In this document: piece after piece, positions 209-12,052 of the stretch
Layout: each line of letters starts with the position of its first letter
Numbering within the stretch: position 1 is the stretch's first letter
Virus genome (UHGV): UHGV-0236088
Direction: 5' to 3' (one strand)
DNA length: 14,359 bases
Origin: a virus
Position numbers and translations under genes: made by a program
The notes under the pieces: generated by a model
The model's input: the letters and a program-made list of their open reading frames with translations, nothing else
What the model was told of the DNA's origin: nothing
Databases searched by the model: none

Positions 209-240
209 AACAAAGCAAAAACCCGGCGCGGGGGCCGGGT
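209..240 (-). terminator. Intrinsic terminator-like hairpin plus T-tract immediately upstream of the holin RBS (tR'-like)
   Basis: Minus strand reads CCCGGC-CCCCGC-GCCGGG (239-222), a perfect 6 bp GC stem, followed by TTTTTGCTTTGTT (221-209), then GGAGG and the holin ATG. Confidence 0.5.
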
Positions 241-267
241 AATTACAATTTCGCATTGTTAGGAAAT

Positions 268-296
268 ATTTTAATCCGTTTGTTTACGCTCTACAA
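268..296 (-). promoter_or_regulatory. Candidate sigma70 promoter (possible late promoter, pR'-like)
   Basis: Minus strand TTGTAG (296-291), 17 nt spacer, TAAAAT (273-268). Predicted start near 260, about 40 nt before the terminator T-tract. No ORF lies between it and the terminator. Confidence 0.25.
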
Positions 297-477
297 ATAC
301 GGCTTTACTGCTTTCTGTATATCAGGCCGTTATCAAGCAACATCTGCATATGCCAACGATCCATGCCGCTTGATTCCCAATATTTATTGCCCGCGCTTTG
401 TGTCATCACCTTATCACCTTTAACCAAATAGGCGATGTTAAATAACATGTGCAAATAGATACCGTCTTCGATCTCGT

Positions 478-2230: not shown

Positions 2231-2276
2231 TTTATAACAAAATGGCGCCACCAGAACAATGCCATTTTGTAAACTT
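2231..2276 (-). promoter_or_regulatory. Promoter/operator-like element, copy 1 of a repeated intergenic motif
   Basis: Minus strand TTGTTC (2259-2254), 17 nt spacer, TATAAA (2236-2231). Flanked by the inverted 9-mers ACAAAATGG and CCATTTTGT. Shares a 40 bp module with 8403-8483. Confidence 0.35.
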
Positions 2277-3939: not shown

Positions 3940-4222
3940 ATTTCTTTCCCTTGTAAGTAACAGCATCAGCGATAAGCAATACCGCCAGCATTTCTCCGTC
4001 ATGCAACGGGTCTGGAATAGCAAAAAATATGTCGCTGTTTTTGTCCGGCACTACTACGCGCATATTGCCTTGTTTGTCTTCATGAACAAACCACGGCTTT
4101 TCGTGTGGCTCAAACATACCGAAAAGCAATTTAAGATCTATTTCTTCTCCCTTCGTGAATAACGATACATCCGTTGTAGCGATAACTAACGCTTTCTGAT
4201 CTGCTGCTTTCTTTGCTTTCAT
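3929..4222 (-). CDS. Hypothetical protein, 97 aa
   Basis: GGAGG upstream of ATG at 4222; ATGA overlap with the upstream stop. Confidence 0.5.
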   Translation of the reverse strand: MKAKKAADQKALVIATTDVSLFTKGEEIDLKLLFGMFEPHEKPWFVHEDKQGNMRVVVPDKNSDIFFAIPDPLHDGEMLAVLLIADAVTYKGKKYES

Positions 4223-4452
4223 TCACCTGCCTCCCATCGGTCAATGCTGATTAAAAAGTCACGTATAGCGTGTCGTTCGTCGCGCGTTGGCTTGCGCTTT
4301 CTGTAGATCTTGAAGTCAAACCATTCTTTTTCTTGTTCGAAATCCATGTCGTAAGCAAGCGCCTCAATATATCCGCAGTCGTGATACTGGTACGCCACGC
4401 CAGCACGAACAAAAAAGCGGGTTTTATCCCGCTTGTGTTCATAAATACGCAT
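4219..4452 (-). CDS. Hypothetical protein, 77 aa
   Basis: GGGG 7 nt upstream of ATG at 4452. Confidence 0.5.
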   Translation of the reverse strand: MRIYEHKRDKTRFFVRAGVAYQYHDCGYIEALAYDMDFEQEKEWFDFKIYRKRKPTRDERHAIRDFLISIDRWEAGE

Positions 4453-6035: not shown

Positions 6036-6225
6036 CCTTCACCTCGCGACGATAGATTTCTACTGGCTTAACCGGAATAGCGTTAAAATCCCCTTCATCC
6101 AGTGCGGCAATAAACGTTAGCGCCAACCGTGCTTCAACACCGCTTAAATACTTGCACCATGCATCACCGTTATAATCTTCAAAAAGAATAATCACTTTTT
6201 TCATGTTTATCTCTTGTTGTTTCAT
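6025..6225 (-). CDS. Hypothetical protein, 66 aa, translationally coupled to Q
   Basis: TAATG overlap with the Q stop codon. An alternative ATG at 6204 would give MKKVIILF.... Confidence 0.45.
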   Translation of the reverse strand: MKQQEINMKKVIILFEDYNGDAWCKYLSGVEARLALTFIAALDEGDFNAIPVKPVEIYRREVKDEA

Positions 6226-6947
6226 TATTCACCCCGTGTCACTCGTTTAATTTCGTTATCAGCCTGCGCCTCTTCTTTGAACAATTCAGCAATGGCGTCT
6301 TCATAGAAAGCACGGTATTTCTTCCACCACGTTGATCGGCTTACCGGAAATACAAGCTGATTAACCGCACGCCGGACAAGATCTACAGGGAAACGCGAGT
6401 ACCCGCGCCCGCCGCAATGCTGGCACGTTTTGAACACTGGCATTTCCGCTGCTTCACTGGCTGCTTTATCCGGTATCTCGCCGCGCCCTTTGCATCGTTT
6501 ACAATGATTGCGAACTTTTCCATGCCCCTTGCATTTTTTGCAAAGGTGTTTTTCTCCGTAGTCGTCAAACGTAAATTTATATCCGCCGCAATCCATACAA
6601 GTTTTTTCTGTCGCGGCACTCTGGCAGTAATCCCGAAACGCGAAAACGGCAACAAGAATAATAAGATCATTGCGTTTGTCCTCGTCCAGCTCCATGATGT
6701 ATTCGTAATCTTTTGCCATAGCTCTTAAACGCTCTGTAAGCAAAACTACGGCCCTGTGTTTTTCGGCTTGCGATAATTCCATCTTCCCTAAAAAAGCGCT
6801 ATAACCAAGCTCTACGCGCGATTGCGCCATACCTGCTGCGGTTAGTGCATCAGTAGTATTAAGCGAGTCTGGGGACGTGCCCCGGCTTTCATCTGACAAA
6901 CGCGGTGATTTTGGGAGGTGGAATTTAAGAATAGATTCCAAATTCAT
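6225..6947 (-). CDS. Late-gene antitermination protein Q (Phage_antitermQ-type)
   Basis: 240 aa. N-terminus MNLESILKFHLPKSPRLSD..., the segment MAQSRVELGYSAFLGKMELSQAEK, DYCQSAAT, several CxxC pairs, GYSRFP and the C-terminal KEEAQADNEIKRVTR match the Q family of Stx and Qin-type lambdoid phages as I recall it. GGGGG RBS. Confidence 0.7.
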   Translation of the reverse strand: MNLESILKFHLPKSPRLSDESRGTSPDSLNTTDALTAAGMAQSRVELGYSAFLGKMELSQAEKHRAVVLLTERLRAMAKDYEYIMELDEDKRNDLIILVAVFAFRDYCQSAATEKTCMDCGGYKFTFDDYGEKHLCKKCKGHGKVRNHCKRCKGRGEIPDKAASEAAEMPVFKTCQHCGGRGYSRFPVDLVRRAVNQLVFPVSRSTWWKKYRAFYEDAIAELFKEEAQADNEIKRVTRGE

Positions 6948-8326: not shown

Positions 8327-8402
8327 AATGCTCCCTCCCTTTAAGGTGATTTCTACGCATTTCAGCGCTGCCGGATTTTTAAAGAGCATTTCGTTTGCTT
8401 GA

Positions 8403-8483
8403 AGTATACAAAATGGATACGCCAGAACAAGGTGAATGGCGCCATTATGTGATCCACATCACGCAATGGCGCCATTTTGTAAA
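8403..8483 (-). promoter_or_regulatory. Promoter/operator-like element, copy 2 (upstream of the NinF-NinG-RusA-Q block)
   Basis: Minus strand TTGTTC (8430-8425), 16 nt spacer, TATACT (8408-8403). Two perfect 12 bp palindromes AATGGCGCCATT at 8435-8446 and 8465-8476, centres 30 bp apart. 9-mers ACAAAATGG and CCATTTTGT at each edge. Confidence 0.4.
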
Positions 8484-8485
8484 TT

Positions 8486-9250
8486 TCAGTCCGGTAAAAC
8501 GCGGTTAAGCGTAGTACGATTGATGGCCCGGTCGTTAGCCAGGAATACAGCACGGGCAAAGCCGCGCGGCGTTAGTGAGCGGATCATCTTAGTGCGTTTC
8601 GACTTTCCTCCTAACTTCGCGTGCTGTTTGCTGTCTTCCCATTCATCCGGCATAGGTACAGGCCGGAATAGCGGCTGCTTAAATCCATTCCCGCACCAGA
8701 TACAAGTTTTCTTCGTGTATGCGTCGCGGTCGGCGATGTATTCCGGGAAAGCAGGATGTTTGTCGTCTTCCGGCAGGTAGCCACCGTAAGCGCACGGATT
8801 GAAGATAAAATCCGGCTTACGCCATAACGTTGACAGTGCGCCCACCGGATTTTCCACCATCCACGGGACGTGATACATGTCAGCCAGCGTTTCTACCAGT
8901 TTTGCGTTATATGCCGCCTTCACCTGGAAGTCAGGATCTTTTTCACGCTTGCTGGCAAACCAACGAGCGCCGGACACGGCTAGATGGTCGCATGGCGGGA
9001 AGGCCAGAATAATGTCAGGATCTGGATAAACAGACAAATCAGGGGAGAACATCACCAGGAAATGGCTGTCAATCCATACGTTAACGTATTCAATATTCGG
9101 ATGAATGATTTTTACGCCTTCATAGTCGCCGTGGTTAGCGCCGTCATAGTTGAAGCAATAACACTTATAGCCAGCGTCAGCCCAATCTTTAACGGCGTAC
9201 CCGCTGCCGTCGTACAACGACCACACCACCCAATTTTTAAGCCCGCTCAT
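8486..9250 (-). CDS. C5-cytosine DNA methyltransferase-like protein (short, atypical motifs)
   Basis: 254 aa. Motif I-like SLYDGSGYAV, followed by AGYKCYCFNYD; motif IV-like AFPPCDHLAVSG (PPC where PCQ is usual); motif VI-like MVENPVGALS (ENP where ENV is usual). GAGGG RBS. ATGA overlap with the upstream gene. Confidence 0.5.
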   Translation of the reverse strand: MSGLKNWVVWSLYDGSGYAVKDWADAGYKCYCFNYDGANHGDYEGVKIIHPNIEYVNVWIDSHFLVMFSPDLSVYPDPDIILAFPPCDHLAVSGARWFASKREKDPDFQVKAAYNAKLVETLADMYHVPWMVENPVGALSTLWRKPDFIFNPCAYGGYLPEDDKHPAFPEYIADRDAYTKKTCIWCGNGFKQPLFRPVPMPDEWEDSKQHAKLGGKSKRTKMIRSLTPRGFARAVFLANDRAINRTTLNRVLPD

Positions 9251-11024: not shown

Positions 11025-11247
11025 CCCAATCCGGCGCGGCAGTCAAGCAAAAACCAATGAATGCGCTCACAGCCAATAAAGCGCGGGCTGCAAAAAGAAT
11101 ATTCCCAATGTTGTTAAATTCAGGCAGCGACCACGTAATAAACATACCCCCCAGCATAATAACACCGATAACAGTCAGGGCCGCCAGGAAAACAAAAAGC
11201 GTAGCCAAAAGCCACGCCCCCAACCAGTTAAAAAAGCTCTTAAGCAT
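11011..11247 (-). CDS. Small membrane protein, about 78 aa, two or three predicted transmembrane helices
   Basis: Start set at ATG 11247 with GAGGACG RBS (MLKSFFNWLGAWLLATLFVFLAALTVIGVIMLGGMF...). The ORF-track start at 11262 is a TTG. Confidence 0.45.
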   Translation of the reverse strand: MLKSFFNWLGAWLLATLFVFLAALTVIGVIMLGGMFITWSLPEFNNIGNILFAARALLAVSAFIGFCLTAAPDWDDTW

Positions 11248-11734: not shown

Positions 11735-11953
11735 TTAAGCCTCAATAACACCGTAATCAAACGTGCCTAAATACCGTTCGATACTTACAACCTCAATACC
11801 ATCAATACACCGTTTCCACACAGACACCTGGCTTTCATTTTCTCTGAAGTGCATATTAGAAAGCACTTCATCGGCTGGATAGTCTTTCCCGGCGACGTAG
11901 GCATCGTGACCTACGCCACCTTCTACGCAATAAAGCATCAATTCGCGTTCCAT
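11735..11953 (-). CDS. Hypothetical protein, 72 aa (start moved to internal ATG)
   Basis: GGAGGAAG 6 nt upstream of ATG at 11953 (MERELMLYCVEGG...). Region 11954-12052 is then intergenic and carries the repeated 13-mer. Confidence 0.45.
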   Translation of the reverse strand: MERELMLYCVEGGVGHDAYVAGKDYPADEVLSNMHFRENESQVSVWKRCIDGIEVVSIERYLGTFDYGVIEA

Positions 11954-12052
11954 TTTTGCTTCCTCCGCACCGTAAACCTTTTGATTTCGGCTTACAAAAT
12001 GGATATGCAATTACAATACAAAATGTATATTTATGTGATCGGAATTACTCGG

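Follow-up and report, generated by a model that had tools for sequence, protein, structure and literature searches.

The systems closest to the element analysed here are the terminators of N-antiterminated early operons (tR2 to tR4 of lambda, t1 to t5 of phage mEp021), the pR-nutR arrangement of lambda, Class I CRP promoters such as lac P1, and the signals that accompany accessory phage genes. Among the latter, morons (a concept attributed to Hendrix and Juhala) are said to be accessory genes that carry their own promoter and terminator, and mobile promoters are homologous promoter segments found upstream of unrelated genes. The phages of the mEpimmI group are common temperate coliphages of the human gut. 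The mEp021-type phages that form this group are Nus-dependent and non-lambdoid, and about half of their genes are variable accessory genes concentrated in the early-right regulatory region (PMC11893012). Phage mEp021 and its kind use an N-like antiterminator, Gp17, together with nut sites, of which nutR2 lies downstream of the cytosine methyltransferase gene (PMC11893012, section 3.5). In the same study, terminator t5 of mEp021 is reported as demonstrated by experiment, no promoters were mapped and no operators were defined for the CI-like repressor Rep021 (PMC11893012).

The window, i.e., the whole stretch of 14,359 nucleotides analysed (UHGV virus genome UHGV-0236088), is the early-right/Q/accessory region of such a phage, and shows 86-88% identity to Escherichia phage MagusPhagus and the Mexican E. 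coli phages mEp010, mEp044, mEp554, mEp013, mEp021 and mEp515. Minus is the gene strand for every gene in the window and transcription therefore runs from high to low coordinates, passing abc2 (anti-RecBCD), the Dam and cytosine methyltransferase genes, a gap that holds a site referred to here as site B, ninF-like, NinG and RusA-like genes, Q, about 25 small ORFs and finally the holin gene. Site A, the subject of this analysis, lies among these small ORFs in a 98-nt gap, and appears to be one copy of a palindromic intergenic cassette of about 75-85 bp that is specific to the mEpimmI family. The reading we prefer, to which we give roughly even odds (about 50%), is that site A is a dual cassette in which an intrinsic terminator lies over a weak promoter of the CRP-box/UP-box type and which acts in addition as a recombination linker. 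In the RNA, ACAAAAUGGC, GCCAUUUUGU and the sequence between them would fold into a long hairpin followed by (A/G)UUUUGUUAU, which is the form of an intrinsic terminator. This hairpin would stop unmodified RNA polymerase arriving from upstream, and read-through into the distal accessory genes would need polymerase modified by Gp17. In the DNA, the same bases would constitute a weak and probably activator-dependent sigma-70 promoter, composed of a CRP-like box at about -60.5, an A-rich box at -46 to -38, a TTGTTY -35 element, a 17-bp spacer and a TGn-TATAAA -10 element, that would allow the gene or genes downstream a measure of independent expression. In the window copy, termination would probably be leaky, and the promoter-like hexamers are intact. 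The cassette also serves as a short stretch of homology where accessory modules have been exchanged. The sequences show the anatomy of the cassette, its conservation, strand-specific pairing, paralogy and recombination pattern; termination, initiation and CRP binding are inferred.

All motif positions given for site A in the original prediction were confirmed (Table 1). On the gene strand the site reads TTTACAAAATGGC-A-TTGTTC-17 nt-TATAAA, with TGT directly before TATAAA, and the gap as a whole reads TAA-A-TGTGATCTACCCTTCA-AAG-TTTACAAAATGGC-A-TTGTTC-TGGTGGCGCCATTTTGT-TATAAA, with the ATG of the next gene 35 nt beyond. TATAAA also closes the U-rich tail, AUUUUGUUAUA, behind the hairpin. Searches of the genes flanking site A against Pfam and PHROGs returned only families of unknown function, and an Rfam search of the window gave no match at gathering thresholds.

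Table 1. Features of the window and cassette relatives in two phages (positions refer to the window unless a phage is named).
Feature	Position	Strand	Remarks
Site A	2231-2292	minus	between ORF 2294-2518 and ORF 1923-2195
Upstream gene	2294-2518	minus	74 aa; without family match; stop codon abuts cassette
CRP-like box TGTGATCTACCCTTCA	2277-2292	minus	starts one base past the stop codon of ORF 2294-2518
Left box TTTACAAAATGG	2262-2273	minus	5' arm of hairpin; -46 to -38 relative to hexamers; resembles UP-element proximal subsite
Palindrome ACAAAAUGGC ... GCCAUUUUGU	2237-2270	minus	predicted RNA hairpin on sense strand; 10-bp arms in the window
-35-like hexamer TTGTTC	2254-2259	minus	3/6 matches to TTGACA
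-10-like hexamer TATAAA	2231-2236	minus	preceded by TGT (extended -10, TGn); without T at -7
Site A motif TTTATA	2231-2236	plus	
Site A motif ACAAAATGGC	2237-2246	plus	
Site A motif GAACAA	2254-2259	plus	
Site A motif GCCATTTTGT	2261-2270	plus	
Downstream gene	1923-2195	minus	90 aa; phrog_7287, function unknown; RBS GGAGGG at ~2202-2207
Cytosine methyltransferase gene	8486-9250	minus	
Site B cassette	8403-8488	minus	outer inverted repeat TGAAATTTACAAAATGG / CCATTTTGTATACTTCA
Site B inner hairpin	8435-8476	minus	annotated TERM_4 (predicted t4) in mEp021; CRP-like CGTGATGTGGATCACA at centre (8448-8463)
Site B -35-like hexamer TTGTTC	8425-8430	minus	16-nt spacer to -10
Site B -10 hexamer TATACT	8403-8408	minus	
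Site B copy of shared piece ACAAAATGG	8408-8416		
Site B copy of shared piece CCAGAACAA	8422-8430		
Site B copy of shared piece GCCATTTTGTAAA	8471-8483		
nutR2-like site	8354-8388	minus	boxA TGCTCTTTA 8380-8388; boxB-like hairpin AGCGCUGAAAUGCGU ~8355-8369
Q	6225-6947	minus	PF03589
Third cassette, degenerate	11989-12049	minus	gap between gp25 and gp26 homologues
Holin gene	start at 195	minus	runs off the low-coordinate end of the window
Moron-heading cassettes, mEp021 (L003)	37614-37718, 42023-42101, 43962-44028		
Moron/Lpp-heading cassettes, MagusPhagus (L004)	8349-8419, 15143-15215, 16738-16816, 19971-20074		

The original prediction regarded site A as a second copy of a module present at 8407-8483, i.e., at site B, and this kinship is real, the two sites being paralogous. 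Site B has about 40 extra bases, the inner hairpin, between the second and third shared pieces, and was recovered at E=0.003 by a profile of site-A-type and gp63-type cassettes that was built without site B sequences. The exact 9-mer ACAAAATGG occurs five times in the window (twice in site A, twice in site B and once at 11994-12002) against 0.26 expected, a count reached in none of 200 shuffles, and ten times in mEp021 against 0.97 expected; with one mismatch allowed, the 9-mer is not enriched (10 versus 6.2 expected). In IMG/VR, the arrangement ACAAAATGG-N16-CCATTTTGT gives 29 matches at gap 16 versus about two for each other gap length, and 27 of them stand in the context of a site-A or gp63-type cassette, the two others (L022 and L070) looking unrelated. 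Site-A and gp63-type cassettes can be aligned across about 85 bp, from AAATGTGATCT to the purine-rich leader. The shared 9-mer TTGTTCTGG is peculiar to the alleles of this window, its relatives keeping only TTGTT. The third cassette of the window consists of a CRP-like right half-site (GATCACA) followed by ACATTTTGT, TTGTAA, 16 nt and TAAGCC, with CCATTTTGT at 11994-12002. Its -10 (TAAGCC) is degenerate and its CRP-like box weak; the mEp021 copy has CGTGATTGCGATCACA and a proper -10, TAAACT. Cassette copies are many and dispersed, and occur in both orientations.

The case for site A turned in part on whether the module is conserved at this position in related phages. Homologues were found there in 13 other phages and prophages, namely MagusPhagus, mEp044, mEp010, mEp554 and nine E. 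coli prophages, the latter from 21 complete E. coli genomes that contain the region; in mEp021 itself this gap element is absent. The cassette is about 92% identical column by column in the alignment of homologues, and TTGTT is conserved in 12 of the 13 distinct ones. In the homologue PAR, both hexamers are mutated (TTATTG and TACAAA) and the arms are kept. The genes on either side behave differently: upstream there are three unrelated gene types and downstream two or three, and the box upstream of the hairpin is kept across the three unrelated upstream genes. Around the cassette, each of the upstream types U1 and U2 is found with each of the downstream types D1 and D2, so that recombination must have taken place within some 75 bp. 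Site A lies at a mosaic junction. As a separate observation, the right arm of site A in the window reads GGCGCCATTTTGT, which is site-B-like, instead of the usual AGTGCCATTTTGT, and may reflect sequence exchange between cassettes.

The inverted 9-mers, which the original prediction took as framing the promoter in the manner of an operator, make up, in the relatives, the lower part of an uninterrupted sense-strand hairpin of 15 bp with a UUCG or UCCG loop. An example is ACGAAAUGGCAUUGU-UUCG-GCAGUGCCGUUUUGU, with 15 pairs and a four-base loop followed by UAUAAAG or UAUAUAU. Over these 15 pairs, 98.5% of the cells are paired in the 13 distinct homologues, versus 40-62% when the registers are slid by 1-3 columns. 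Five stem pairs vary, each only by way of G·U and with no compensatory double substitutions, and a hand count of the alignment gives about eight wobble-compatible stem changes versus two that are not (p ~0.05); variation at site A is concentrated in the loop. Hairpin z-scores in the relatives range from -4.3 to -6.3. As it is G·U pairs on the sense strand that make up the imperfections, RNA of this strand exceeds antisense RNA in stability, by 6.8 kcal/mol on average, and this strand bias argues for selection on RNA instead of on a DNA dyad, as a dyad bound by a protein would lack it. The upper stem of the relatives, GGCAUUGU-UUCG-GCAGUGCC, has a stability of -10.0 kcal/mol (about -19 kcal/mol for the full stem), which compares with -10.6 and -13.1 kcal/mol for two other terminator-like hairpins in the window, the second of which is the homologue of mEp021 terminator t5. 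Directly behind the upper stem, the window and all homologues have a U-rich tract, AUUUUGUUAU, which is partly paired with the upstream A-tract. The element is annotated in GenBank as a Rho-independent terminator predicted by ARNold in mEp044 (T7), mEp010 (T8) and mEp554 (T10); a simple consensus scan called no terminator at site A, either in the window or in strain M1/5. With a terminator predicted at this position in the relatives, read-through into the distal genes should depend on antitermination of the Gp17 type.

The window carries a decayed allele of this hairpin. Three substitutions that change CAGTGCC into TGGCGCC reduce the upper stem from -10.0 to -2.6 kcal/mol, the difference between sense and antisense strands is gone, and the fold cannot be distinguished from that of shuffled sequence (z -1.4). 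The allele is also present in IMG/VR contig L043, and strain FAH is 99.1% identical over the region, which argues against a sequencing error as the origin of the inner-stem decay. If the element is a terminator, the loss of its inner stem probably makes termination leaky in this phage. Judged from these pairing patterns, the inverted repeats of site A are best read as the RNA hairpin arms of a predicted terminator, decayed in this copy, and not as a repressor operator. A further terminator-like hairpin, AAGCGGGAUAAAACCCGCUU-UUUUGUU, is found at 4415-4434 (minus) in the accessory region between Q and holin, near the start of ORF 4219-4452, and is conserved in mEp021 at 22593-22612.

The promoter-like part of site A is less clear-cut. 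Its -35, TTGTTC, matches at three of six positions and falls below the scan threshold, which is four of six for this element, and the simple consensus scan called no promoter at site A in the window or in strain M1/5. In all homologues the -10 is TATAAA, TATATA or TACAAA; TATAAA has A-11, T-7 is replaced by A, and no register of the -10 supplies both bases. T at -7 is one of the two most conserved bases of sigma-70 promoters. The spacer is of 17 bp with TGn and shows no indels in the 13 homologues. The hexamers share bases with the hairpin arms and the U-tract, so that the hairpin by itself could account for some of their conservation. The weak -35, the missing T-7 and the lack of a scan call imply that any promoter at site A is weak or activator-dependent. 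The original prediction proposed that the gene at 1923-2195 and those beyond it have their own promoter. This part is plausible, as relatives of the cassette sit elsewhere at positions where promoters are needed, but the hexamers are weak and TTGTTC-17-TATAAA without T-7 can only be regarded as a weak, putative promoter.

Upstream of these hexamers lies the CRP-like box, which in the window matches at seven of ten positions, its left half with flank, AAATGTGATCTA (which equals the CRP consensus), being perfect and its right half matching at two of five. A perfect TGTGA-N6-TCACA (10/10) is present at site A in four relatives, i.e., M1/5, N25, mEp044 and mEp554. With at most one mismatch, this motif occurs seven times in mEp021 versus 1.56 expected, and four of the seven lie inside cassettes; it is not enriched in the window. 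In hexamer-based numbering, the box is centred at about -60.5 in site A, site B, the gp63-type cassette and the third cassette, at about -70.5 (one helical turn further) in the gp68-type and at -62.5 in the gp74-type.

Site B offers a comparison within the same phage. Its inner hairpin is 7.5 kcal/mol more stable on the sense than on the antisense strand, and in relatives the two ACAAAATGG boxes form an outer stem of 16-17 bp. In seven distinct homologues, CTTGTT is a conserved island between variable stretches that stays unpaired in RNA folds, the spacer is always 16 nt and TATACT is invariant. The boxA of nutR2 starts about 15 nt downstream of the -10 hexamer. By its sequence, site B is thus a promoter-type footprint followed by a nut site; no promoter at this place has been reported in the accessible literature on the phage group. 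Between 2231 and 2195, i.e., downstream of site A, no nut site (boxA plus boxB) was found, and transcripts started at site A would therefore not be N-modified. This divides the proposal that site A is under the same control as the nin/Q block: the cassette is indeed shared, but site B is followed by nutR2 and site A is not, and the two sites are consequently not under identical control.

Relatives of the cassette were also found at loci with a clearer need for a promoter. A box of the form T(A/T)TACAAAATGG(C/A) lies directly upstream of a -35-like hexamer at several loci. At pR of mEp021 it is followed by TTGACT-17-TATATT, which the consensus scan calls (10/12 matches), without a hairpin. In the tail region, a cassette relative immediately precedes the leading gene of every opposite-strand cluster, namely gp63, gp68 and gp74. 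These clusters must have a promoter of their own for which the cassette is the only candidate, and the cassette is thus associated with promoters. The moron clusters concerned are gp63, gp68-65 and gp74-71, each headed by a cassette relative that is oriented with the cluster; the Lpp exclusion gene of MagusPhagus is headed by one more weakly (E=0.06). Side observations were made in the immunity region of mEp021. Read on the other strand, the box upstream of pR (11923-11950, minus) is TCCATTTTGTATACTT, which has a 16-nt run in common with the site B -10 region. Here the scan calls TATACA-16-TATACT as a leftward promoter; it would stand back-to-back with pR and run antisense to the last part of the repressor gene. 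At 11167-11218, an in-frame ATG that precedes the annotated start of Rep021 by 51 nt would lengthen the protein by MKTKWYDLAKQLMRAQG, an extension that matches the N-terminal arm with two lysines described for Rep021 (PMC11893012). Within this stretch lies ACAAAATGGTATGACT, with 88% identity to the pR box plus -35.

Three other explanations of the site have to be weighed against the dual cassette. The simplest, which we consider somewhat unlikely, sees only a decayed intrinsic terminator of an N-antiterminated early-right operon, the hexamers and the TTTACA box being by-products of the composition of A-tract, stem and U-tract. It accommodates the ARNold annotations in three relatives, the strand-specific conservation of the hairpin, the -10 without T-7, the 3/6 -35 and the absent promoter call, as well as the loss of both hexamers in PAR, which yet keeps the arms. 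However, it leaves unexplained why a TGTGATCT box, located 20 nt before the hairpin, is retained beside three unrelated upstream genes, why the element is paralogous with cassettes that head opposite-strand clusters, where a promoter is required and a terminator has no role, and why site B contains a conserved unpaired CTTGTT island. The dispersal of many copies in both orientations, with all four combinations of flanking genes around the cassette, also suits a REP-like palindrome or recombination linker without any role in transcription, which would promote module exchange or act as an mRNA-stabilising or RNase III-processed hairpin, a purpose for which the long, near-perfect stems of 15-19 bp are appropriate. 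Against this very unlikely explanation speak the fact that every copy points the same way as its downstream gene and keeps a constant spacing to promoter-like hexamers, the position of site B immediately upstream of a nut site, and the conservation of the U-rich tail and the upstream box.

The original prediction, in which a sigma-70 promoter is flanked by inverted 9-10-mers that serve as the operator of a phage regulator, would let a single protein switch control sites A and B, and possibly pR and the morons as well. We regard this as decidedly unlikely. The strong enrichment of the exact 9-mer, its identity in paralogues with differing centres, its solitary occurrence beside the -35 both at pR and in the gp68-type cassette, neither of which has a hairpin, and a one-mismatch copy, TTTACAGAATGG, in the pL region all agree with an operator. 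The departures from dyad symmetry are, however, almost all of the G·U type and on the sense strand only, and in relatives the palindrome runs continuously through its centre, a continuity for which an operator of two half-sites, here 24 bp apart from centre to centre, has no need. Moreover, the multiple copies expected at the immunity promoters of a CI/Cro-type system are lacking, pR having a single box and the pL region only the one-mismatch box, and the GenBank records of three relatives label the element as a Rho-independent terminator. The two perfect 12-bp palindromes of site B, AATGGCGCCATT at 8435-8446 and 8465-8476, fare no better as operators: they belong to the allele of this window only, and at their positions six relatives read AATGGCGTCATT and AATGGCGCT(A/T)T(A/T), which are non-palindromic and pair with one another via G·U. 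For Rep021 in particular, the immunity region holds single copies only, one of them probably inside the true start of the rep gene, and an operator of this repressor was rejected; no candidate protein for binding such an operator came to light. The dual cassette, in which the arms would act as RNA, remains the preferred reading.

Further identities were considered for site A and discarded. A sigma-54 promoter (TGGCA-N7-GGCA; consensus TGGCAC-N5-TTGCW, with GG and GC 12 nt apart) was suggested by the relatives, which read TGGCATTGTTTCGGCA. Its GC, which is located in the variable loop, is missing from the window, MLI107 and 2017C and is therefore not conserved. Consensus sequences of IHF, Fis, TyrR and LexA were compared by eye and none fits. 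The leader of the downstream gene contains AACGAT (2203-2216, minus), at about +9 to +14 of a putative site-A transcript; the hexamer is identical to the pause-inducing element of lambda pR'. Since AACGAT is absent from the alternative leader type of MagusPhagus and mEp044, it is probably coincidental, and a Q-dependent late promoter at site A was rejected for the same reason and because a better late pair precedes the holin gene. This pair, at 221-298 (minus), is likely a late promoter and a terminator just upstream of holin. TTGTAG-17-TAAAAT comes first, followed at about +2 to +7 by AACAAT, which is -10-like, then by a strong hairpin, ACCCGGCCCCCGCGCCGGGU-UUUUU, the homologue of mEp021 t5, and by the ATG at 195. 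From TAAAAT onward, mEp021 and MagusPhagus have conserved the sequence, including where another gene lies upstream. Should it be the late promoter, the site of Q action would lie about 6 kb downstream of the Q gene.

A wider interpretation, which we consider unlikely, is that each cassette joins an intrinsic terminator to a portable Class I promoter that responds to cAMP-CRP. The cassettes would insulate and restart transcription at accessory junctions throughout the mEpimmI phages, tie the expression of morons and delayed-early accessory genes to the catabolite state of the host, include an internal promoter that feeds nutR2 and so explains the third nut site, and be the linkers behind mosaicism. 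If a promoter indeed lies directly upstream of nutR2, the unusual third nut site of mEp021 would gain a rationale. Likewise, a reusable stop-and-restart cassette with module recombination would, if true, account for the way in which incoming genes acquire their regulation ready-made, and explain which of the accessory genes a prophage can express. There are also consequences for annotation, as cassette palindromes should not be read as operators and the terminator labels in GenBank may tell half of the story.

Compared with known systems, site A resembles tR2 to tR4 of lambda and t1 to t5 of mEp021 in having a sense-strand hairpin and a U-rich tract after a stop codon within a long co-directional early operon that is served by the N-like Gp17 and nut sites, with an upstream A-tract complementary to the U-tract and an ARNold prediction in three relatives. 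It differs from them in that the lower stem of the predicted terminator is AU-rich and long, the GC-containing upper stem has decayed in the window, and an extra conserved TGTGATCT box, unneeded by a terminator, lies upstream. Site B is comparable to lambda pR-nutR, since TTGTTC-16-TATACT is followed 15 nt later by boxA (TGCTCTTTA) and a boxB-like hairpin at the published position of nutR2, whereas site A has neither boxA nor boxB downstream. With Class I CRP promoters (lac P1, CRP at -61.5) the cassettes share a CRP-like TGTGA-N6-TCACA motif at constant distance from the -35 in four cassette types, weak -35 hexamers and an A/T-rich stretch at the position of the alpha-CTD; in contrast, only the left half-site is good in the window, and the putative CRP site is centred at -60.5 (-62.5 in the gp74-type) by hexamer-based numbering and not at a measured -61.5. 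As with morons and mobile promoters, at least six unrelated genes of a single phage genome, among them the first of every opposite-strand moron cluster, are preceded by homologous cassettes of about 80 bp, the accessory genes on either side vary in presence, and the module boundary carries terminator and promoter signals. Here, however, the cassette superimposes a predicted terminator and a putative promoter in a single palindrome instead of flanking a gene with them, and copies are also found inside the early operon and at pR. The family-wide architecture of the cassette with its sense-strand hairpin signature, and its presence, with the CRP-like box, at pR, nutR2 and every opposite-strand moron cluster head are not described in PMC11893012. 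Terminators, moron promoters and reused promoter segments are nevertheless known kinds of element, and site A is already labelled as a predicted terminator in three records; the cassette findings are modest additions to these systems and not a new kind of system.
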